From a virus, in the IMG/VR virus record IMGVR_UViG_3300026292_000602, positions 1 to 64,000 of that record: a stretch of DNA of 64,000 nucleotides. One strand, 5' to 3'. Both the position numbers and the translations under genes were made by a program. The first letter of the stretch is position 1; each line of letters starts with the position of its first letter. Under the pieces are notes generated by a model, which saw only the letters and a list, made by a program, of their open reading frames with translations, did not search any database and was not told the origin of the DNA. Shown piece by piece: positions 2,239 to 63,052 of the stretch.

Positions 2239-2793
2239 CTACCTAATATGGACAAAAAAGAAGTGATTTAAGCTATAACGACCTGATCCTTTAATAGGCT
2301 TTACTTCGTGTTGTACGAAGCTAGGAAACAGTATTAACGAGTTGTTTTTAAGATGTGGTACATAATTATAGTCAGAAAATGATAGTTGCCCACCTGTAAA
2401 TTGTTTTGGCTCTTTGAATAATAATGTTACTGCTGACAATACTCCTAGGTCAGGATGAAGGTCATAACTGCCATCTCCGTTATAGCAATTAAGTTGAGTA
2501 ACATCAAAGTTACACATCTTTAAATAATTTGAAAAGATGTTCTCTGACAAGTCTAGATCAAATATCTTTCTATTGTATCTTAGAATACTGCTTACGTATC
2601 TATCTTCTTTGTAGTGTTTATCTAAATGAACTGCGTTCATATTACTACTTTTAGGATCGCCATTGTCTTTTGTATCAGTGGCGTGTTGATTTAGATAATC
2701 TATTTCAGAAAATACACTAGGAAGTTCTGCGTCTTCAAAGAAATCGTCTATAATAGTGTGTACGAAAGGTTTCTGATGAGTACTAATCTGCAT
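2239..2793 (-). CDS. 2OG-Fe(II) oxygenase (P4H-like)
   Basis: HPD...GGQL...LFPS..HEV...R motif. Confidence 0.85.
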
Positions 2794-3832
2794 TGAACTG
2801 ATTGAATACTTGGTTAACCTGTTGTGTACATCTTACAAACGTTGTACACTTAGGCATATCTTTTAAACGTCTTGCACCAATGTAAGTACAAGCACTTCTA
2901 ACACCTCCAAGTATTTCAGTAATAGTTGCGTCGACAGGTCCTTTGTGTGGAATCTTAACTACTTTACCTTCAGCACCTCTGTATCCATCTTTTCTACGAC
3001 CATGTCTTTGCATAGCTTCATCTGAACTCATACCATAGAACGTAACTTTGCCATCTATAATTTCGCCTTCTGATTCGTCGTGTCCTGCTAACATACCACC
3101 TAGCATAACAAAGTGTGTACCTGCTCCAAAGGCTTTTGCAACATCACCTGGATATACACAACCACCATCAGCAATAATGTGTCCACCTATACCATTTGCG
3201 GCATCAACACATTCTATTACGCCTGACAGTTGTGGAACTCCTACACCAGTTTGTAATCTAGTTGTACATACTGAACCTGGTCCAATACCAACTTTAACAA
3301 TGTCTGCTCCACGTATAATAAGTTCTTCTGTCATCTCTGCGGTAACAACGTTACCAGCAATAATAGTTTTGTCTGGATAGTTATCTCTCATTCGAGCAAT
3401 AAAGTCTCCGAAGTTTTCATGATAAGCATTTGCAACATCAACAGTAATAAATTTAATATCTGGAAATGCTTCTAATACTCTTACCATAGTGTTATAATCT
3501 TTAGCATCTTTATCCCAGATATAACCTGTACCTGTGCATACACTAAGGTACTTCATTTTAATTCCTTGCGACTTTTGTTCCCAGTCTTCAAATGAATTGT
3601 GCTTACCTATTACAGTTAGCATCTTATGATCTTGTAATACTTTAGCCATACTAAATGTACCAACTCCGTCCATATTACTTGACATAATAGGAACACCAGT
3701 CCAGTGATTGCCACTATTGTGGAATTGGAAAGTTCTAATAAGATCAACATCTCTTCGACTTTCTAATTTAGATCTCTTCGGCTTGAATAAGACGTCTTTG
3801 TAGTCTAGTTTAATGTCATCTTCAATTCTCAT
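2783..3832 (-). CDS. guaC: GMP reductase
   Basis: [15 protein letters not shown] start, [24 protein letters not shown]. Confidence 0.95.
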
Positions 3833-10393: not shown

Positions 10394-10496
10394 TGGCTCT
10401 GGGGGTAGGACTCGAACCTACACGGTTAAATATATTGCAGTACATTTAGCCATACGAGAAACAATCGTACGTGTCTACCAATTCCACCACCCCAGA
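10394..10496 (-). tRNA. Atypical tRNA with GUU (Asn) anticodon, class II body and very long variable arm (103 nt)
   Basis: Acceptor UCUGGGG/CCCCAGA, G73, CCA; Leu/Ser-like D arm; anticodon stem UACGA/UCGUA with loop UUGUUUC; ~30-nt variable arm; T arm GUAGG-UUCGAGU-CCUAC. Confidence 0.85.
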
Positions 10497-10499
10497 TCG

Positions 10500-10658
10500 T
10501 TATTTTACGTTTACTATCCTCTTTAATAGTTCAACGTACTTTTTAATATCTTTACGTTTCCTTTTCTTAACAACTTTTGGGTTTTCTTTCTTTTCAGGCA
10601 ATATAGCACCTGTTGTAATATAGTGTAATGTTAAAGGATTGTTAGGATCGTAAGCCAT
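10500..10658 (-). CDS. Small basic hypothetical protein (52 aa)
   Basis: MAYDPNNPLTLHYITTG...KKRKRK; ATG overlaps the upstream stop. Confidence 0.6.
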   Translation of the reverse strand: MAYDPNNPLTLHYITTGAILPEKKENPKVVKKRKRKDIKKYVELLKRIVNVK

Positions 10659-11533
10659 TAACAAGCCGCCACTGGATCGTGTGTTAACGATGCCATTTGC
10701 TCTACTCTTGTCTCTGGGTTCTCTAGTCTATCTAATGCACTTATCATACGTGTCATTCCTATACCACCACCTACTCTTGGAAAGAAGTCGTGTTTTAAGA
10801 ACGTTTCTAGTTCTTCTTCTACTCTTTCTTTACCAAACTTGTCAAACAGTAAGTTACTGTAAGCACCTTCAGTAATTGTATGGAAAGTATCTCGCATTTG
10901 CTCTACATCAGTTGAACGTTCTGCACTACCTATTGTTTCCATTCCACCTAGTATTACATCTATCTTTTTACTTGTACCATCAGTATTTCTACTCATGTTC
11001 CAGAAAGGACTTGTAAACTCTGGGAAGTCTGTAATCATAGTTGTATAATAGTTTTCAAACATTTTAGTTTCATGCTCTGCCGTTAGCTCTCCTTCAATGC
11101 CGTATTCTTCTTGCCATTCGGCATAAGTTTTTTCTGTGGGCATCTTAAAGCCTAAGTGTTGACATAGTTCGTATTCCATCTTTTTAAGATCATCTATGTC
11201 ACCTGGCATTTCAAATTCAAACATTGGAAATATTATATCATGTCTACCTGGTATTGCATTAGGTTCTTGTCTGTAGGAAGTGGAGACACAAAAAAACCCC
11301 TTCGAAGAGGGGCGTGTAAGTAATTCGTATTCTAGCCACATCTGGCCCGTTTGCGGTAACGGCCAAACTTGTCCTGCATAATTGTATGTTGCTACATTAA
11401 AAGGATCTTCACACGCCGCCAGTATGCTTAATCTGTTTTGTGTGTGTACTTCTTCAAATCCTTTATTCAAAAAAAATGACCTTAAAAGGCCAACTGTCTT
11501 CGTAAATTTACTCGGGTTTATTAATTGCGTCAT
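10658..11533 (-). CDS. Class IIb aminoacyl-tRNA synthetase catalytic core (AsnRS / archaeal-type AsnA-like), no anticodon-binding domain
   Basis: Motif 1 FF..KGFEEVHT, motif 2 YRQEP..GRH..F, motif 3 GGGIGMTRM; begins directly at motif 1. Confidence 0.85.
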   Translation of the reverse strand: MTQLINPSKFTKTVGLLRSFFLNKGFEEVHTQNRLSILAACEDPFNVATYNYAGQVWPLPQTGQMWLEYELLTRPSSKGFFCVSTSYRQEPNAIPGRHDIIFPMFEFEMPGDIDDLKKMEYELCQHLGFKMPTEKTYAEWQEEYGIEGELTAEHETKMFENYYTTMITDFPEFTSPFWNMSRNTDGTSKKIDVILGGMETIGSAERSTDVEQMRDTFHTITEGAYSNLLFDKFGKERVEEELETFLKHDFFPRVGGGIGMTRMISALDRLENPETRVEQMASLTHDPVAAC

Positions 11534-11636
11534 TTCTTTTTTCCTTTTTGAGTTATACGTCAAAAAAAATTTAAGTCAAAAAAAAACTTGACTGTGTTTC
11601 TTCTGTCTAGGTATTTATCATCTAGGCGAAAAAACG

Positions 11637-11713
11637 TGGCGGGAGTGAAGGGACTCGAACCCTCGGCCTTCCGCGTGACAGGCGGACGCTCTAACCAACT
11701 GAGCTACACCCCC
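11637..11713 (-). tRNA. tRNA-Asp(GTC)
   Basis: Canonical cloverleaf, CCA encoded. Confidence 0.95.
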
Positions 11714-11723
11714 ACTATTTTAG

Positions 11724-11798
11724 TGGTAGTCCCTAGGAGAATCGAACTCCTCTTTGCGGTATGAAAAACCGCTGTCCTAACCGATAGACGAAGGGACC
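11724..11798 (-). tRNA. tRNA-Glu(TTC)
   Basis: Cloverleaf with anticodon arm GCGGU-UUUUCAU-ACCGC, CCA encoded. Confidence 0.93.
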
Positions 11799-11806
11799 AC
11801 TTTAAG

Positions 11807-11882
11807 TGGTGGAGCACGAGGGAATCGAACCCACGACCTCCTGAATGCAAATCAGGCGCTCTCCCAACTGAGCTAGTGCCCC
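11807..11882 (-). tRNA. tRNA-Ala(TGC)
   Basis: Cloverleaf with G3-U70, CCA encoded. Confidence 0.95.
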
Positions 11883-13204: not shown

Positions 13205-13505
13205 TAGACGCAACGTTTCTGTTGCTAGGTACGTTGCCAACCCCGAGTGATTATGCCGCTAGGGCAAAATCCTCATTTACCGCAGTTACTGGCGCAGAAA
13301 AATCTACGAAAGTAACGTTGGTTAGTGCATTATCGTTTGCATCTATAACGTTTGTTCGCGTTAACGGAGCTTACATCCCGGTAATCTCGTTCAACCTTAA
13401 CAAGCCAGTCGATCCTATTTCTACCCCGTAGGGGGTGTATTGAAATGGTGGAGTAGCCGGGTATCGCACCCGGGTCCTGCTCTTGTGACATACGTTGCTG
13501 TCATC
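13205..13505 (-). ncRNA. ssrA: tmRNA, circularly permuted two-piece type
   Basis: Acceptor piece ...CCCGGGUGCGAUACCCGGCUACUCCACCA (3' end 13446) lies upstream of the coding piece GGGGUAGAAAUAGGAUCGAC (5' end 13427); tag ANDNALTNVTFVDFSAPVTAVNEDFALAA at 13340-13251. Outer boundaries approximate. Confidence 0.93.
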
Positions 13506-13577
13506 AATTACAGTAATATTTAGCCTTAATATGCTACTATTATAGGAAAAGAGATAACTAATGTCAAAGGAAAAACA

Positions 13578-15277: not shown

Positions 15278-15562
15278 CTAGTGGTTGTGGTTCATTCCTG
15301 TATTTTCCATAACCTCAACTAATTGTTCATACCCTCCTACATACTTACCGTGTAGTATAATCTGCGGAGCAGTTCTTGGCATAGGTAAGTTATTCAGTTC
15401 AAACTCTTTTATTAAAGTTTCAACTTGGATATCCTTTCCAATTACACTTTCAGTATAAGGAATCTTCTTGTTATCTAATAACATCTTTGCTTTTACACAA
15501 GAAGGACAATTAGGTTTAGAATATACAACGGTAGTACTAGGTGTAGCTTGTTTAGTTTCCAT
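15278..15562 (-). CDS. Glutaredoxin
   Basis: CPSC, RTAPQI, GGY; adjacent to nrdAB. Confidence 0.92.
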   Translation of the reverse strand: METKQATPSTTVVYSKPNCPSCVKAKMLLDNKKIPYTESVIGKDIQVETLIKEFELNNLPMPRTAPQIILHGKYVGGYEQLVEVMENTGMNHNH

Positions 15563-16665
15563 TATAGTTTAAATCCTTTTAGTGAGTCAGTACTGACATC
15601 TTGTTTAATACCACCAACAATATAACTTTCAACTTCTGTTTCTTGTGGTGCTACTTGTAATCCTGAAGAACTCAACCAATGCTGTGTCCATGGTAGAGGA
15701 TTCTGTGTTGATGGTGTATCAAATATAGGTTTGTATCCTAATGCTTTAAGTCTTCTGTTAGCAATATATTCTACATAGTTTCCTAATAGTTTTTCATTAA
15801 GACCAATAATAGATCCATCTTTCATTAAATGATGTGCCCAAGCCTTTTCTTCTTCAACGCAGGTCTTCCACATTTCATAAACTTCAGCTTCACACTCTTT
15901 TGCAATAGAGGCTATTTCTTTATCGTCTTCACCACGCATCCAGTTCTTAATTATGTGTGAACTTAATGCAAGGTGTTGACTTTCATCTCTAGCTATTAAA
16001 CTAACAATCTTTGCAGAACCTTCCATAAGTTTTAGTTCACCAAATGCAAAGGTACAAGCAAAAGAAACATAAAAACGTAATCCTTCTAAGATGTTTACGT
16101 TCATCATCGCTAAGAACAACTTCTTCTTAACATCTCTCATTGTGCCTTTCTTTAAGTGTATAAACTTATCCGCGGCTTCTGTGAACGCATCATAGTTTTT
16201 AGTAACACTAATTGCACGTTCAATAATTTTATCATCTTCTAATATAGTATCTAATACTTCACTAGGGTCAGCATATACGTTCTTCATAATGTGTGTATAA
16301 GAACGACTGTGTATAGTTTCAAAGAAATCCCAAGTAACAATACAACCTTCTAGTTCAGGTATACTTACGTGTGGTAAGAAAGCTAAACATGGTCCTCTAC
16401 CTTGTACACTATCTAATAGTGTTTGGTATTTTAGATTTGCCGTGAAGATATGTTTTTGCTCAGGACGAAAATTTGCATAATCGCTTCTATCCTTTTGTAA
16501 TGAAACCTCTTCAGGTCTCCAAAAGTAACCTAGCATTGTTTGATTTAATTTATCAAATACTGGAAATTTGAATACATCATACCTTTGTGTATTCTGATCG
16601 GGTCCAAAGAACATGGTGCTCTTTGTAAAGTCTACTTTTTCTCTGTTAAATACTGTTTTTGCCAC
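15562..16665 (-). CDS. nrdB: Ribonucleotide reductase class Ia beta subunit
   Basis: FWRPEE, ETIHSRSY, EGLRFY, RDESQH, APQETE. Confidence 0.97.
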   Translation of the reverse strand: MAKTVFNREKVDFTKSTMFFGPDQNTQRYDVFKFPVFDKLNQTMLGYFWRPEEVSLQKDRSDYANFRPEQKHIFTANLKYQTLLDSVQGRGPCLAFLPHVSIPELEGCIVTWDFFETIHSRSYTHIMKNVYADPSEVLDTILEDDKIIERAISVTKNYDAFTEAADKFIHLKKGTMRDVKKKLFLAMMNVNILEGLRFYVSFACTFAFGELKLMEGSAKIVSLIARDESQHLALSSHIIKNWMRGEDDKEIASIAKECEAEVYEMWKTCVEEEKAWAHHLMKDGSIIGLNEKLLGNYVEYIANRRLKALGYKPIFDTPSTQNPLPWTQHWLSSSGLQVAPQETEVESYIVGGIKQDVSTDSLKGFKL

Positions 16666-16678
16666 TTATTGATCCTTC

Positions 16679-19012
16679 CTATATAGCACAACTGTCACAT
16701 ACTTCTTCTTCATCTTCTAGTGGTTTACCATCTGGAAGTCCAACTTGTGGTTCAAAAGAATTTGTAGTCTCCGTTTTAATTTCCTCTTCACTTGGATCAG
16801 ACTTGAAATCGTAAGTGTTTTGATAGTAAGATGTTTTCCAACCATACTTGTAAGTTGTTAACATATCTTGTAACATAACACTCATTGGAACTTCATTGTT
16901 CTCAAAGTGAGTTGGGTTATATGACCAATTACCACTAATGGCTTGATCAAAGAACTTCTGCATTACTGCTACGATATTTATGTAGCCTTCGTTACTAGGC
17001 ATATCCCATAACAAAGTGTAATTATTTTTTAATGTAGTATACTGCGGAACAATCTGCTTAAGAGGCCCTTTTTTACTCTTTTTAACGGACAAGAATCCTC
17101 TAGGTGGTTCGATTCCGTTTGTGGCGTTCGACACAATGGAACTGCTCTCCGAAGGCATTTGTGCGGACAATGTGCTGTGCCGTAGACCATGGGCTGATAT
17201 GTCCTTGCGAAGAGAATCCCAATCATATTTTAATGTTATTGAACATACTTCGTCCAACTCCTTTTTATATGTGTCAATCGGCATAATGCCATCACTATAT
17301 TTAGTGCGATCAAAGTACTCACATTTTCCTTTTTCTTTTGCTAATTCGTTACTTGCTACTAACAAATAATATTGAAATGCTTCAGATAGTTCGTGTACTT
17401 TAGTAAGTGCTTTCTTATCTGAATACTTACAACCTTGTTTTGCTAGATAATGTGCAAGTCCAATGTATCCTACTCCTAGTGAACGTCTAGCTTTAGTGCT
17501 AACCTCTGCGGCTTTCACTGGATACTTCTGATAATCAATAACTTCGTCTAAAGCTCTTACTGCCAAACCACATAAGTCTTGTAACTCATCTAAGTCTTTT
17601 AGTGTTCCAACATTAATAGCAGAAAGAATACATAATGCAATTTCTCCTTCTGGGTCATCAATGTGTTGTAAAGGTTTAGTAGGAAGTGTAATCTCTTGAC
17701 ATAAGTTACTCATATATACTGTGTCTTTAAATGAACTGTGTGTATTAGAATGATCAACGTTCATTAAATAGATACGTCCTGTTTCAGCTCTCTCCTTGAT
17801 TAGAGCAGAAAACAATTCCATTGCTTTAATCTTACGTTTCCTCAAAGAAGTTTTACGTTCATATTTTACATATAATTCTTCAAACAACTTTTGGTCGGCA
17901 TAGAAAGCCTCATATAAATCTGGTACATCGTGTGGTGAGAAAAGAGTTATGTCGGCGTCTTGTAAGAGCCTTTCGTACATTAATTTATTCAGTTGAATTG
18001 AATAATCTAATCTACGTACTCTGTTATCCTCTGTACCTTTATTATTTTTTAGTACAAGGATATCATCTATTTCATAATGCCATAAAGGGAAGTGAGTAGT
18101 TGCGTTACCACCACGTACTCCATTCTGCGTACAACATCTTACAGTTGACTCGAATTTTTTTAGAAACGGAATCAAGCCAGTGTGTGCTACCTCACCACCT
18201 CGTATCTTAGAATTGATAGCTCTAATACGTCCTGCATTAATTCCTATCCCTGCTCTTTGTGCCGTGTATCTACCAATGGCCATATCACTCGAAAAAATAG
18301 AATCAAGGGTGTCATCAGTATCAACAAGAACACATGAAGCAAACTGTCTAAGAGGAGTACGTACACCGGCCATGATTGGCGTCGGGATATTGATTTTAAA
18401 AAGTGAGGTCGCATCATAATATCTCCTTACATATTGCATACGTGTTTCTTTAGGATAGTCAGCAAATAATGTTGCCGCTATCATCATATACATAACTTGT
18501 GGTGATTCGTATATTTCTCCTGTACTTCTGTCTTGTACAAGGTACTTGTCAACAATTTGTCTTAGCCCTGCATAGGTAAAGTTTTCATCTCTATTATGTT
18601 TGATGTATTTGTTGAGTTGTTTTAATTCTGTTTCAGTATATTTTTCTTTAATAGACTCGTCGTAGACTCCGCCTTTTATATTTCTATCTATAATTTTAAG
18701 TAATGAAATCGGATTGTACTGACCAAACGTTTCTTTATAGATAGGGTAAAGTAATAATCTTGCCGCGGCGTATTGATAGTTGGGATTTTCCAACGTAATC
18801 AGATCGTTAGCAGACTTAATAAGTATCTCTTGTATTTCTTCTGTAGACATTCCATCATAAAATTGAATATTAGCCGTCATTTCAATTTGTGAGGCACTTG
18901 TTCCTGTTAGCCCTTCGGTGGCTTCTTCAACAACAAAATGAATTTTATTAATGTCTAGGGGTTCTACTGAACCATCGCGTTTTTTGATTTGTATACCAAC
19001 GCCATTTGACAT
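16679..19012 (-). CDS. nrdA: Ribonucleotide reductase class Ia alpha subunit with ATP cone
   Basis: KKRDG ATP cone, SNLCQEI, PSESSS, C-terminal CDSC. Confidence 0.97.
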   Translation of the reverse strand: MSNGVGIQIKKRDGSVEPLDINKIHFVVEEATEGLTGTSASQIEMTANIQFYDGMSTEEIQEILIKSANDLITLENPNYQYAAARLLLYPIYKETFGQYNPISLLKIIDRNIKGGVYDESIKEKYTETELKQLNKYIKHNRDENFTYAGLRQIVDKYLVQDRSTGEIYESPQVMYMMIAATLFADYPKETRMQYVRRYYDATSLFKINIPTPIMAGVRTPLRQFASCVLVDTDDTLDSIFSSDMAIGRYTAQRAGIGINAGRIRAINSKIRGGEVAHTGLIPFLKKFESTVRCCTQNGVRGGNATTHFPLWHYEIDDILVLKNNKGTEDNRVRRLDYSIQLNKLMYERLLQDADITLFSPHDVPDLYEAFYADQKLFEELYVKYERKTSLRKRKIKAMELFSALIKERAETGRIYLMNVDHSNTHSSFKDTVYMSNLCQEITLPTKPLQHIDDPEGEIALCILSAINVGTLKDLDELQDLCGLAVRALDEVIDYQKYPVKAAEVSTKARRSLGVGYIGLAHYLAKQGCKYSDKKALTKVHELSEAFQYYLLVASNELAKEKGKCEYFDRTKYSDGIMPIDTYKKELDEVCSITLKYDWDSLRKDISAHGLRHSTLSAQMPSESSSIVSNATNGIEPPRGFLSVKKSKKGPLKQIVPQYTTLKNNYTLLWDMPSNEGYINIVAVMQKFFDQAISGNWSYNPTHFENNEVPMSVMLQDMLTTYKYGWKTSYYQNTYDFKSDPSEEEIKTETTNSFEPQVGLPDGKPLEDEEEVCDSCAI

Positions 19013-32019: not shown

Positions 32020-32093
32020 GCGGGTGTAGTATAATGGTATTATGACAGCCTTCCAAGCTGATGATAGGGGTTCGATTCCCCTCACCCGCTCCA
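32020..32093 (+). tRNA. tRNA-Gly(TCC)
   Basis: Cloverleaf, U73, CCA. Confidence 0.95.
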
Positions 32094-32101
32094 TATCCTT
32101 T

Positions 32102-32178
32102 GGCAGAGTAGCTCAGGTGGTTAGAGCACCGGACTCATAAGCCGGGGGTCGCAGGTTCGAATCCTGCCTCTGCTACCA
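32102..32178 (+). tRNA. tRNA-Met(CAT), elongator type (Ile2 not excluded)
   Basis: Cloverleaf with loop CUCAUAA. Confidence 0.88.
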
Positions 32179-32180
32179 AT

Positions 32181-32254
32181 GTTACCGTGACAGAGTGGTT
32201 ATGTAGAGGATTGCAAATCCTTGTACGGTGGTTCGATTCCGCCCGGTAACTCCA
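32181..32254 (+). tRNA. tRNA-Cys(GCA)
   Basis: Cloverleaf, U73, CCA. Confidence 0.95.
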
Positions 32255-33436: not shown

Positions 33437-33451
33437 TTTATACGCCTTTCA

Positions 33452-33487
33452 TAAAAAAAGGAGCCTTCCCTATTGTGGGTTGGCTCC
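33452..33487 (-). terminator. Intrinsic terminator downstream of pqqA
   Basis: GGAGCC...GGCUCC stem followed by U7. Confidence 0.7.
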
Positions 33488-33531
33488 GAGTTAATATTAT
33501 AATAATACTATCAATGTATTATAATGTCAAC

Positions 33532-33609
33532 CTATATTTCAGCACAGGCATAAGAATTAATTTCTAATCCAATACATACCTCTACGATTTGTGGAGTGTT
33601 CCATTGCAT
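33532..33609 (-). CDS. pqqA: PQQ precursor peptide PqqA (25 aa)
   Basis: MQWNTPQIVEVCIGLEINSYACAEI: W..P...GxE-x3-Y signature; GGAG SD. Confidence 0.9.
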   Translation of the reverse strand: MQWNTPQIVEVCIGLEINSYACAEI

Positions 33610-33751
33610 CGTATGTCTCCAAGTTAGAAGTTACGTGCCGGTTGTCTAACGACCGCGGTCCACAGTACAATAAATGTACTAATAATATATATCTTTTTTA
33701 AAATGAACGTCTTATGAACAGAAAGGATATATACTATACAGGAGAAGAAAA

Positions 33752-34345
33752 ATAGTTTTTGCACATTTATCAACTGTTGCGTTTCTAATTCTTGGCTTTG
33801 CATTTGTACGTATGATGACAAGCATAACAAGTTTAATAGCAATCAATAACAGCACTAATAATGAGAAGGTCACTTTTTACTGGCCACATACATTGTTTTG
33901 CTTTATAACAATATTCACGATGATACTATTCTGGTGGACAGCAACACCACTTCAAGATGTAAACTTCTATCCTGATAGCAACTGGAATCTATTCACATAC
34001 ATATTATTTCTTGCAGTTCCAATGCTTATGTTTCTTATAGCAGAAGTAAGTATACCATATAACCACGATAATAAAAGTGTTAACTTACAAGACCATTACT
34101 ATCAATATCACAAAGTAATACTAGGACTTGCTTGGGTATTACAAATATTCTTAATAGCTAACTTCTTTGTATTTTATAACGAAGGTGATATAATAAGTGC
34201 TAAAGTAATAGGTCGTGTTGCTATGTTAATAATAATGTTACCTATGGTGCTATCTCCTAATAAACAGGTACACAGAATAGGAATGAGTATATTCTTTCTA
34301 GGATTTATATATACTATACTAAAGTATCACGTCTTTATAGCATAA
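33752..34345 (+). CDS. Multi-TM membrane protein with apparent ATA start
   Basis: Hydrophobic in-frame N-terminal extension VFAHLSTVAFLILGFAFVR ahead of ATG 33812; AGGAG SD 7 nt before ATA. Confidence 0.7.
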   Translation: MVFAHLSTVAFLILGFAFVRMMTSITSLIAINNSTNNEKVTFYWPHTLFCFITIFTMILFWWTATPLQDVNFYPDSNWNLFTYILFLAVPMLMFLIAEVSIPYNHDNKSVNLQDHYYQYHKVILGLAWVLQIFLIANFFVFYNEGDIISAKVIGRVAMLIIMLPMVLSPNKQVHRIGMSIFFLGFIYTILKYHVFIA

Positions 34346-34385
34346 GAAAGGGTGCCGATAAACGACACCCCGAGATGTTTAACAA

Positions 34386-35450
34386 TTAGAATTGTTTAGC
34401 TATTTCTCTCTCTGCTTCTGTGGCAAAGTTTTTATCCCAGTCGTCTAACTTGTCTTTCATAAACTTATCAAACAACGGAGGTATTAGTGCAAGTGCAAAC
34501 AAGGTGAAGTATCCTACTCCTGTGTTTGGTGCACCTACTTCATCTAGTTCCCAGAAGTGAGTTTCTCCTCTGTCATGATGATCAGCTTGACGACCAATCT
34601 CTATAAAGAACCATGAAGTAAACAATGTTGAGTTATCCCAACTGTGTCTATAGTCTATCGGTTGATTTTTAACACGAATTAAACCATAGTGTTCTAAATA
34701 GTTAAGTGCTTCTAACTCAAAGTTTGATATAACCCAAACAAGAGCCACACACGCAACACCTAACCATCCGCCTGCATAAAAGAATAATGCAAGTGTTGGT
34801 ATACTCATAAAGTAACCTCTAATCCATCTGTTACTTAACGTCAGGAAAGGTTTACCTAAACGTTTCAATCTAGCTCTTTCCATATCAAACAAGAACTTTG
34901 ATTGTCCTAGATGTGATTTGACATAGTGTGAATAGATATCGCGTCCACGAGGTGCAGTTGCAGGATCATCTTCAGAAGCTAGTTCTAAATGATGATTGTA
35001 AACATGAGCATAACAGAAATGTGCTGAACCACTTAACGCCATCATCCAACGACTTATAATAAAGCTAAAGCCTTTGGTGTGTGATAGTTCATGCCCATAG
35101 ATTATACCTATGCCTGCAAATATACCTGTTGATAATACAGCACCTAAAAGCTCTGCTCCGTGCATACCATTATATATTTGATAAGCTAGAGCAAGTTGAA
35201 GTGCTACAAAGACTGGTAACATCAAATACATTACTGCATTTTGTAACCAGGGGATCCCTAAGGTATCACCGTTCTCATCAAAACCTACACCACGTGTTTG
35301 GTGTGTGATAAGAGTGTCAAGTATAATGCCTGCTCCCAACAAGCCTACACCTGTCCATACCCAAACGCCTCCTGCTAACACTCCTGCGAGTGTTACTAAT
35401 ATCAACGTTGGTGCTATGAAGTACCTTATGTTTAATAGAAGTTTTCTCAT
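34386..35450 (-). CDS. alkB: Alkane 1-monooxygenase / XylM-type membrane di-iron monooxygenase
   Basis: His boxes HELSH, HVYNHH, NYLEHYG, ADHH; DPATA. Confidence 0.88.
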   Translation of the reverse strand: MRKLLLNIRYFIAPTLILVTLAGVLAGGVWVWTGVGLLGAGIILDTLITHQTRGVGFDENGDTLGIPWLQNAVMYLMLPVFVALQLALAYQIYNGMHGAELLGAVLSTGIFAGIGIIYGHELSHTKGFSFIISRWMMALSGSAHFCYAHVYNHHLELASEDDPATAPRGRDIYSHYVKSHLGQSKFLFDMERARLKRLGKPFLTLSNRWIRGYFMSIPTLALFFYAGGWLGVACVALVWVISNFELEALNYLEHYGLIRVKNQPIDYRHSWDNSTLFTSWFFIEIGRQADHHDRGETHFWELDEVGAPNTGVGYFTLFALALIPPLFDKFMKDKLDDWDKNFATEAEREIAKQF

Positions 35451-35594
35451 TGTGTTCTCCCGGCTCTTAACCTGTAGTTTCACAATGTATTACTATGTTA
35501 GCACAATAACAAATAATGTCAAGTGCATATTATTATTTATATTACCAAAAAGGAAAGTTTGTTCTTATAAGGATATTAGCATATTATAATATGC

Positions 35595-35843
35595 TTATGG
35601 CTTTAGCCACTTCTTAGATAGTTCGTACCAATACTGTCCACCTTCACGTAAAGCTTCGTTGTCTTTACGTAACTTTTCCATTCGACGCATTATAACATCG
35701 TGCTGGAATTGTGATAAAGTTTTGTTAGTGGATTGTAGTTTTTCTAAACGTGATAGCACATCGTCAATCGAGGGACAGGTTATATCAGGAACCTTAGGAG
35801 CCTTCCGCTTAATCTTTTGCCATACCTTTTTTTCGAGTGCCAT
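35595..35843 (-). CDS. Hypothetical phage protein
   Basis: APKVPDITCPSID...LR..G..W. Confidence 0.7.
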   Translation of the reverse strand: MALEKKVWQKIKRKAPKVPDITCPSIDDVLSRLEKLQSTNKTLSQFQHDVIMRRMEKLRKDNEALREGGQYWYELSKKWLKP

Positions 35844-40490: not shown

Positions 40491-40683
40491 AGTTTTAAAA
40501 GATTTTTGGAAACAATGCGATCAAGTCAGTAAAGAATTGCACCAGAATGGCTATCAAGTCCACTATCATCACGGAGGAGTGTTTGTTCATCATATAGAGC
40601 CTCCAAAGAAAACTACCCACATAAATACTACAGATGATAGACTTAACAAAGTTCAAAGAAAAGATACAAGAACTAAAAGATAA
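40474..40683 (+). CDS. Hypothetical protein
   Basis: Fills the gap between the methyltransferase and hemA. Confidence 0.5.
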   Translation: MLKWFKVLKDFWKQCDQVSKELHQNGYQVHYHHGGVFVHHIEPPKKTTHINTTDDRLNKVQRKDTRTKR

Positions 40684-41812
40684 CGGTAATTACCGTGTCT
40701 TTAACGATATACTCCGCGAGAGGGGAGATTATCCCAATGCGATATGGTACGGGAAGTACGCAATTAAAAACATTGTAAATTGGTGTTCTAATGATTATCT
40801 TGGAATGGGACAACACAAAGTGGTGCTCGATGCCATGCATACCGCCCTTGATCAAACAGGTGCCGGTTCGGGTGGAACTAGAAACATCGCTGGAACAAGT
40901 CATTATCATGTAGCACTAGAGCACGAGTTAGCCAAATTGCATAGCAAACAGTCAGCTCTACTCTTTACATCAGCTTATGTGGCAAATGAATGGTCACTAA
41001 TTGCTTTGAAACGTATCATTCCCGACATTGTGTTTTTAAGTGATAGCAAGAATCATGCTTCTTTAATACAAGGAATAAGACACAGTGGTGCTGAAAAGAA
41101 AATTTTCAAGCACAATGATCTAGAGCAATTAGAGGAACTACTGCGAGACGTCAAAGGAACACCTTGCATAGTCTTTGAGTCCGTGTATAGCATGGATGGA
41201 TACGTCAGTAAATTACCAGAAATTGTTGCATTGGCTAAGAAGTACAATGCCATCACGTACCTCGACGAGGTTCACGCCGTTGGCCTGTATGGTGAAACAG
41301 GTGCTGGATATTCAGCAAAGCTAAGATCACAGGATCAAATCGACATACTGAATGGCACATTAGGTAAAGCCTTTGGAGTTCAGGGCGGATACATAGCAGG
41401 GAAGTCTGACGTTATAGACGCAATTCGTTCTGTCTCCTCTGGCTTTATTTTTACAACATCAATGAGTCCAGTTATTTGTGCAGGAGCATTGGCAAGTGTC
41501 AAGTACTTAAAAGATCACAACGACCTAAGAGAAAAACATCAAGAACGTGCTAAAAGATTAAAGAATTTATTTAGAAACAGAGGAATTCCAATAATGGAGA
41601 ACGAAACACACATTGTTCCGGTTACTGTGGGCGATGCCAAAAAGTGTAAACAGATTAGTGATGAATTAATAAATGAATATGGAATATATGTTCAGGCAAT
41701 AAATTATCCAACTGTTGATGTAGGCACAGAACGTCTACGTTTTGCTCCGACTCCATTCCACACGAATGCAATGATGCATTCACTATGCGATGCTCTAGAA
41801 AAAGTATTGTAG
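40634..41812 (+). CDS. hemA: 5-aminolevulinate synthase
   Basis: WCSNDYLGMG, GSGGTRNI, NHAS, DEVHAVG, GTLGKAFG, INYPTV. Confidence 0.96.
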   Translation: MIDLTKFKEKIQELKDNGNYRVFNDILRERGDYPNAIWYGKYAIKNIVNWCSNDYLGMGQHKVVLDAMHTALDQTGAGSGGTRNIAGTSHYHVALEHELAKLHSKQSALLFTSAYVANEWSLIALKRIIPDIVFLSDSKNHASLIQGIRHSGAEKKIFKHNDLEQLEELLRDVKGTPCIVFESVYSMDGYVSKLPEIVALAKKYNAITYLDEVHAVGLYGETGAGYSAKLRSQDQIDILNGTLGKAFGVQGGYIAGKSDVIDAIRSVSSGFIFTTSMSPVICAGALASVKYLKDHNDLREKHQERAKRLKNLFRNRGIPIMENETHIVPVTVGDAKKCKQISDELINEYGIYVQAINYPTVDVGTERLRFAPTPFHTNAMMHSLCDALEKVL

Positions 41813-62879: not shown

Positions 62880-62964
62880 GCTCCCATGATGGAATAGGTA
62901 GACATAACAGACTTAAAATCTGTGGCCAATTGGCGTCCCGGTTCGAGTCCGGGTGGGAGTACCA
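62880..62964 (+). tRNA. tRNA-Leu(TAA)
   Basis: Class II cloverleaf, A73, CCA. Confidence 0.95.
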
Positions 62965-62975
62965 ACCTTTGATAT

Positions 62976-63052
62976 CTACCCGTAGCTCAGCAGGATAGAG
63001 CAACGGTCTTCTAAACCGTGGGTCGGGGGTTCGAATCCCTCCGGGTAGGCCA
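62976..63052 (+). tRNA. tRNA-Arg(TCT)
   Basis: Cloverleaf, CCA. Confidence 0.95.

Follow-up and report, generated by a model that had tools for sequence, protein, structure and literature searches.

The synthesis of PQQ uses up one PqqA peptide per cofactor molecule. Phage helper genes may be placed under host regulatory sites, as in the case of cyanophage pstS, which is preceded by Pho boxes. The pqqA passages of Coutinho et al. (2020, Microbiome 8:163) describe PqqA together with methanol dehydrogenase in phages of Lake Baikal, for which Methylophilaceae were predicted as hosts, and the corresponding passages of a reservoir-sediment paper (2026; PMC13188868) place viral pqqA among phosphate-related helper genes. 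Neither an RNA leader nor common cis-elements are mentioned in these pqqA passages. Viral alkB is known as well, with 275 alkB-bearing viral contigs presented in a preprint (10.64898/2025.12.08.692962). As a category, the stand-alone viral pqqA is already published. For the features described below, i.e., the alphaproteobacterial peptide type, the AlkB-like neighbour, the leader hairpin named here P1, and the link to a GTTCAT repeat, no published or Rfam description was found.

The window, which is the whole stretch of DNA analysed here, is taken from an IMG/VR record of 81,967 bp, of which it covers the initial 64 kb. The completeness of the record was estimated with CheckV at 23%, implying a genome of about 350 kb, and the record is a fragment of a marine jumbo phage of that size. 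It contains replication and head genes (DnaB-like helicase, primase, exonuclease, and ClpP-type head-maturation protease), genes for both ribonucleotide reductase subunits (15562-19012, minus strand), and GMP reductase (2783-3832, minus strand). The helicase shows 52% identity with those of the jumbo phages PA5oct and Atu_ph07. Two viral records serve for comparison: G004, which is collinear with the record at mostly 70-99% amino-acid identity, and G013, a terminase-containing record of 356 kb and 96% completeness, which has 42 proteins in common with ours in a partly kept order. Seawater metagenomes that contain the stretch number at least 14 and come from 11 studies. A gene for 5-aminolevulinate synthase, an enzyme typical for Alphaproteobacteria, is located at 40634-41812 (plus strand; TIGR01821, 580 bits), and about 10-11 tRNA genes are spread over 10397-11882, 32020-32254, 48560, and 62880-63052. 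The two-piece tmRNA at 13206-13571 (minus strand; RF01849, 125 bits), encoding the tag AVNEDFALAA, is of alphaproteobacterial type; such two-piece tmRNAs were already known in marine phages, including Melnitz (PMC9004378).

The pqqA gene occupies positions 33532-33609 on the minus strand, a strand on which the initial annotation was silent, and consists of 25 codons and a stop. Its 25-aa product, MQWNTPQIVEVCIGLEINSYACAEI, falls in the length range of PqqA peptides (about 20-30 aa) and contains the cross-link residues Glu16 and Tyr20 (Glu-x3-Tyr), which in PqqA are turned into PQQ. The identification as PqqA, based initially on the W..P...GLE-INS-Y signature, was borne out by both curated models, with 30.6 bits for Pfam PF08042 (cut-off 21.1) and 36.4 bits for TIGR02107 (cut-off 20). 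In the complete 81,967-bp record, this open reading frame is the sole PqqA match, and the pattern W-x2-P-x7-G-[LMF]-E-[IV]-[NT]-x-Y, searched at the DNA level, occurs once in the window, where shuffled sequences give an expectation of 0.00. The 7-residue spacing between the Trp-x2-Pro leader part and the core is identical to that of cellular PqqA copies. A GGAG Shine-Dalgarno sequence, as claimed before, can be read at 33617-33620 (minus strand), 7 nt 5' of the ATG, and is kept in the aligned leaders. The phage carries a bona fide pqqA. The exact 25-aa peptide had no match in the protein collection, and neither tblastn with the peptide nor blastn with the cassette gave a match in 50,697 GenBank phage records, which for a query so short is weak evidence of absence. 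The initial annotation had reported no pqqB-E genes in the window; the finding extends to the full 82-kb record, in which no PqqB, PqqC, PqqD, or PqqE was detected, nor any PQQ-dependent dehydrogenase or radical SAM gene.

Viral pqqA is widespread. At least 120 viral contigs in IMG/VR encode PqqA with the correct Pro-Gly spacing, all as short frames starting with M(x)W, and a control search with the spacing enlarged by one codon (8 residues from Pro to Gly) gave 3 chance matches only. With a second pattern, in which the codons for Glu and Tyr were left unconstrained, 190 viral copies of the record's 25-aa peptide type were collected. Loss of the Glu/Tyr pair in viral homologs had been named beforehand as the outcome that would speak against a functional PqqA; the pair was retained in 190/190 copies, as were all the positions conserved among cellular PqqA proteins. 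The pN/pS ratio calculated for unconstrained codons over 122 distinct DNA sequences was 0.37, and viral pqqA is under purifying selection. In one viral locus (L416), a PqqA-like N-terminus (MEEWNTPEVTEEAVGLEINSYACA...) continues, with no stop, as a long acidic tail rich in Asp, Ser, and Gly.

Because the record is only 23% complete, the stand-alone status of its pqqA has to be argued from relatives. PqqC was found in 0/54 pqqA-bearing viral records tested, 11 of which are 94-100% complete (phages of 32-59 kb and the 356-kb G013), and PqqE in 0/50; in cellular genomes, the same searches, used as positive controls, detected PqqC in 31/38 and PqqE in 5/5. The proposal that the phage supplies only the precursor is thus supported by the relatives, with 23% of the phage's own genome at hand in the record. 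The near-complete jumbo relative G013 carries a pqqA of a different type in a different place, and at 218-250 kb it has at least 8 clustered radical SAM genes, none of them at the PqqE cut-off. A viral record of 72 kb (G021, containing locus L074) encodes a 628-aa PQQ-dependent dehydrogenase at 34103-35707, about 6 kb from its pqqA, and resembles the Lake Baikal phages in this respect.

The region 5' of the ribosome-binding site is predicted to fold into two hairpins. The GC-rich hairpin leader that had been noticed in the sequence was confirmed at 33664-33634 by RNAalifold and a covariance model; this stem-loop, P1 (33634-33664, minus strand), is built from three short helices stacked on each other and has a GA bulge as well as an internal loop that is conserved. 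It has a length of 33 nt and the sequence GUGGACYGCGGUC-(loop)-GRCAACCRGCAC, and the covariance model match at 33633-33665 (49.8 bits) is the only one in the window. RNAalifold independently gave the same three stacked helices and the two-base bulge. When the leaders were aligned to the covariance model, pairing held for 98.9% of cells and both partners had changed in 5 of 10 pairs, with pairing dropping to 24-60% in a control in which the partners were slid; compensatory changes are seen in all three helices of distant variants. The presence of G-U pairs points to an RNA made from the minus strand rather than to a DNA palindrome. The second hairpin, P0 (AGUACA...UGUACU; 33664-33680, minus strand), is a predicted fold whose pairing is kept in the clade with altered letters (GUAC/GUAC vs GUAG/CUAC), and we infer that it probably lies close to the transcript's 5' end or directly at it. 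A helix hiding the ribosome-binding site and start codon was predicted for the single sequence and is missing from the consensus fold of 40 leaders; therefore, no switch is claimed.

P1 was seen almost exclusively in viruses. The motif was found in 100 viral stretches, and 63 of 67 distinct instances are followed by an intact pqqA 19-32 nt downstream; two of the other four are cut by the contig end and two are chance occurrences in GC-rich coding DNA. The model matches 65/81 loci of the record's peptide group, once per locus; across 837 kb of further viral DNA, which included G013 in full and the remainder of the record, it gave zero matches. The covariance models of Rfam 15 matched the leader at chance level only (E > 3). 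The leader-pqqA cassette was found in phages of 56-59 kb as well as in the jumbo clade, and it therefore appears to move as a unit. When 100 cellular pqqA loci were searched with the P1 model, matches were obtained in two (L132 and L196) and the other 98 had none. Both are low-GC contigs assigned to MAGs that carry the labels Maricaulis and Flavobacteriaceae, the two genomes lack PqqC, and the contigs are probably viral DNA misbinned into bacterial genomes. One genuine cellular P1 copy was found (L445; G093:C2:10945-10980). It belongs to the chromosome of a streamlined marine alphaproteobacterium, where it forms part of the 5' leader of rpoH (TIGR02392, 343 bits), a gene located between rluD and purA. 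The order of this alphaproteobacterium also includes many of the PQQ-making single-cell genomes; among 42 genomes of the order, no other contains the leader. A shortened leader pattern applied to 401 alphaproteobacterial genomes gave matches in 59 genomes, which are read as chance in GC-rich DNA since reversed-pattern controls gave similar results and the covariance model rejected the 30 loci tested.

The 3' end of the cassette is formed by a predicted intrinsic terminator (33453-33487, minus strand), whose presence the initial annotation had also indicated and which was confirmed as a GC-rich hairpin directly followed by T7, with a predicted energy of -17.3 kcal/mol. The stem of 6+3 bp (GGAGCC...GGCTCC at 33487-33460, with an inner CCC/GGG helix) precedes the T tract at 33459-33453. 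The site was missed by a simple terminator scan because the stem has an internal loop. At the same place in G004, a hairpin of quite different sequence still folds and the T tract is kept. Across viral pqqA genes, terminator-like sites were found 3' of 91/285 vs 7/285 in shuffled controls. Between the pqqA stop and the terminator, a promoter scan revealed a sigma-70-like site, TTGACA-17-TATTAT (33502-33530, minus strand; 11/12 matches), with -35 and -10 hexamers constant across the clade and a variable spacer. This promoter-like site is a poor fit to a simple cassette. Transcripts starting there would meet the terminator hairpin before reaching the next gene (33436-33278), which encodes a 52-aa hydrophobic peptide. 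Concerning transcription of the locus, a 194-nt metatranscriptome contig covers exactly 33445-33637, i.e., the gene and its 3' end, RNA-library cover also extends over 33617-33767, and the AlkB-like gene discussed below is covered in three RNA studies. As assembled contigs carry no strand, ends, or levels, and DNA carry-over is possible, this cover is consistent with expression and nothing further. Parts of the locus for which such contigs are missing should not be read as silent.

A direct repeat GTTCAT-N5-GTTCAT, to which a host transcription factor may bind, is located at 33703-33719 (minus strand), upstream of the pqqA promoter region. The window contains this repeat once, vs 0.03 expected. 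In the jumbo clade, the repeat is present in 19/27 pqqA upstream regions in its strict form and in 27/27 when one variable base per half-site is permitted, at a constant position of 91-99 nt (about 95) before the ATG; it was found in 0/260 other viral pqqA loci. Genomes of the candidate host order contain 82 matches in 39/42 genomes (about two per genome), vs 11 for a reversed control. In 13 genomes for which coordinates were cross-checked manually, 21/26 sites lie just 5' of rpoH, a PQQ-dependent dehydrogenase gene, or the pqq operon, and the second half of the host sites is mostly ATTCAT. Five host PQQ-dehydrogenase promoters (L528, L534, L527, L529, and L536) have in common GTTCAT-N5-ATTCAT-N8-CTTGAA and a conserved GGGAGGAAAUCAAAUAACC leader; judged by their sequences, they resemble promoters of the sigma-32 type preceded by a repeat. 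The sequence GTTC-N7-GTTC is known as the alphaproteobacterial LexA box. The LexA-box reading of the repeat was set aside, as the host sites are mostly ATTCAT and are found at rpoH and PQQ-dehydrogenase genes, not at repair genes. The repeat is the best clue to the host and to a possible co-regulation, and it remains suggestive because it is a 12-base pattern combined with a manual cross-check.

The best candidate for the host would be one order of streamlined marine Alphaproteobacteria. The pqqA peptide type is common to marine Alphaproteobacteria, many of them with low-GC genomes of 1.3-2 Mb, and those with the same peptide type possess PqqC and PqqE. PQQ-dependent dehydrogenases are encoded in 35/38 marine alphaproteobacterial genomes, often about 5 kb from pqqC, and pqqB-E are present in the candidate host group. 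The pqq operons of marine Alphaproteobacteria have their own pqqA, and some genomes contain more than one pqqA copy. Protein similarity gave no host assignment. The 5-aminolevulinate synthase shows 48-59% identity to all alphaproteobacterial candidates alike, and the AlkB-like protein matches only 3/38 genomes at 27-31% identity, with no close host homolog among them.

Directly upstream of pqqA, at 34386-35483 (minus strand), a membrane di-iron oxygenase related to AlkB is encoded, with the FA_desaturase fold (PF00487, 96.7 bits). The protein matches the solved alkane 1-monooxygenases 8SBB (5e-29) and 8F6T (2.7e-27) and contains the motif NYLEHYGL (NYxEHYG). Eight of nine canonical His ligands are present; in the third His box, Gln takes the place of the initial His (RQADHH vs RHSDHH); the NCBIfam alkane hydroxylase models gave zero matches, and no rubredoxin is encoded on the 82-kb record. 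Because of the missing ligand, the lack of rubredoxin, and the lack of an NCBIfam match, the label AlkB-like is used rather than AlkB. In this phage lineage, pqqA always follows the AlkB-like gene. The direct neighbourhood was observed in 15 related viral loci, whereas 0/120 cellular pqqA loci contain the AlkB-like gene. In the record, a 177-aa membrane ORF (33812-34345, plus strand) is placed between the two genes on the opposite strand. The near-identical locus L337 has the same gap of about 780 nt between the AlkB-like gene and pqqA, and in G004 the gap amounts to about 160 nt only. An attractive reading is that an alkane-to-alcohol step may feed a PQQ-dependent alcohol dehydrogenase, which would give a possible alkane-to-alcohol-to-aldehyde route.

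It is probable, in our assessment, that the phage carries a functional pqqA on its own short transcript and uses it for precursor supply to the PQQ synthesis of the host. The cassette, transcribed alone, would comprise the upstream repeat, two 5' hairpins, the ribosome-binding site, 25 codons, and the intrinsic terminator. During infection, the phage would provide the component that is consumed, one peptide per PQQ molecule, and we infer that the peptide would then be converted by host PqqD/E, PqqB, and PqqC. The benefit to the phage might be that periplasmic PQQ-dependent dehydrogenases stay loaded and keep respiration supplied with electrons during the copying of a very large phage genome, with the alcohol made by the upstream AlkB-like oxygenase as a possible substrate. 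The control region of pqqA would reuse cis-elements which in the host belong to PQQ-dehydrogenase genes and rpoH. Since one peptide is destroyed per PQQ, a phage can in this way sustain a whole cofactor pathway with a gene of 78 bases, a length that is skipped by ordinary gene callers.

A further step would be to consider P1 and the GTTCAT repeat as a host-borrowed control module, by which pqqA is wired into the stress and alcohol-oxidation regulon of the host, with P1 as a new regulatory RNA. We regard this extension as tentative and, on balance, rather doubtful. Under such a module, P1 may act as a thermosensor or as a protein- or ligand-binding switch, and not as a mere stabilising hairpin. 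Independently of this, P1 is a small, well-supported RNA element which together with the repeat ties a phage gene to the control regions of host PQQ-dehydrogenase and rpoH genes, and the leader and the repeat provide testable handles on host identity and on the timing of helper genes by the phage.

The supply of a precursor by the phage has to be weighed against other explanations. The whole pathway might be phage-encoded, with pqqB-E located in the approximately 270 kb outside the record, so that pqqA would not be stand-alone at all. The 23% completeness (CheckV) of the record leaves space for this, and at least eight radical SAM genes are present in the jumbo relative G013; however, G013 at 96% completeness encodes no PqqC and no PqqE above the cut-off, eleven near-complete pqqA-bearing records lack PqqC, and the cellular operons that were checked keep pqqA close, whereas no pqq gene lies within 33 kb on one side and 48 kb on the other side of this pqqA. 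We consider a phage-encoded pathway quite unlikely. The same holds, even more strongly, for a passenger gene derived from the host or for cellular DNA misfiled as viral, which seems extremely unlikely. The host-like cis-elements around the gene and the two leader-pqqA contigs in bacterial genome bins could be cited in its favour, but the record contains phage replication and head genes and shows synteny with a terminase-bearing 356-kb record, the stretch recurs in seawater (at least 14 metagenomes, 11 studies), the leader is missing from the other 98/100 cellular pqqA loci, and purifying selection acts over more than 120 distinct viral sequences.

The remaining alternatives concern the action of the peptide. 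A short leader-plus-core peptide could, as an argument and not as a direct result, bind PqqD with no turnover, and the viral peptide might thus be a decoy that occupies host PqqD/PqqE and lowers PQQ synthesis, or a tool in phage-phage competition. The conserved positions of cellular PqqA and both cross-link residues are nevertheless intact in 190/190 viral copies, one viral record encodes a PQQ-dependent dehydrogenase as well, and methanol dehydrogenase occurs together with PqqA in a phage population of Lake Baikal, as stated in the pqqA passages of Coutinho et al. (2020). These dehydrogenases point to a boost of PQQ-dependent oxidation and not to a block, and the chance that the peptide is a decoy is very small. 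It is comparably improbable that the peptide serves another modification or signalling route, tied for instance to the AlkB-like oxygenase, instead of PQQ. The adjacency of the AlkB-like gene, conserved in 15 loci, and the atypical character of the oxygenase would be in line with such a route, but phages of 56-59 kb have the same cassette and, within the fetched surroundings of pqqA, lack an AlkB-like gene, the record lacks a radical SAM gene, and the peptide is indistinguishable in sequence from cellular PqqA.

The locus can be compared with several known systems. With the cellular pqqA of marine Alphaproteobacteria, it shares the length, the W-x2-P...G-L-E-I-N-S/C-Y-A-C-A-E pattern, and up to 21/23 identical residues; it differs in that the P1 leader is missing from all 100 cellular loci searched except L132 and L196, which we read as viral, and in that the cellular genomes encode the converting enzymes. 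Compared to the pqqABCDE operon, the phage pqqA has no adjacent pqqB-E. This adjacency is typical and not defining, as pqqA copies away from the operon exist; PqqC or PqqE was detected within the fetched stretch in only 47/120 cellular pqqA loci. With the viruses of the alkB preprint (10.64898/2025.12.08.692962), the phage shares a gene of the AlkB family, here as the neighbour of pqqA; marine viruses are known carriers of such genes. In contrast, PQQ and pqqA have 0 occurrences in that preprint, and the alkB-pqqA pair, seen in 15 loci, was observed here. As for cyanophage pstS, a host cis-element located 5' of a phage metabolic gene would couple its expression to a host regulon. The difference is that, unlike the Pho boxes, GTTCAT-N5-RTTCAT has no known binding factor, and in the candidate host it marks promoters of PQQ-dehydrogenase and rpoH genes. 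The closest relatives in concept are the phages of Lake Baikal, since in the pqqA passages concerned with them pqqA is likewise carried with the rest of the pathway missing and is read as a boost to the PQQ-dependent dehydrogenases of the host. Those phages, according to the same passages, have predicted methanol-eating hosts and encode a methanol dehydrogenase, whereas this record is devoid of a dehydrogenase and combines a peptide of alphaproteobacterial type (GLEINSYACAE core) with an AlkB-like neighbour in a marine jumbo phage of about 350 kb. The principle, so far published for phages with methanol-eating hosts, is thereby widened to include giant phages whose hosts are probably streamlined marine Alphaproteobacteria.
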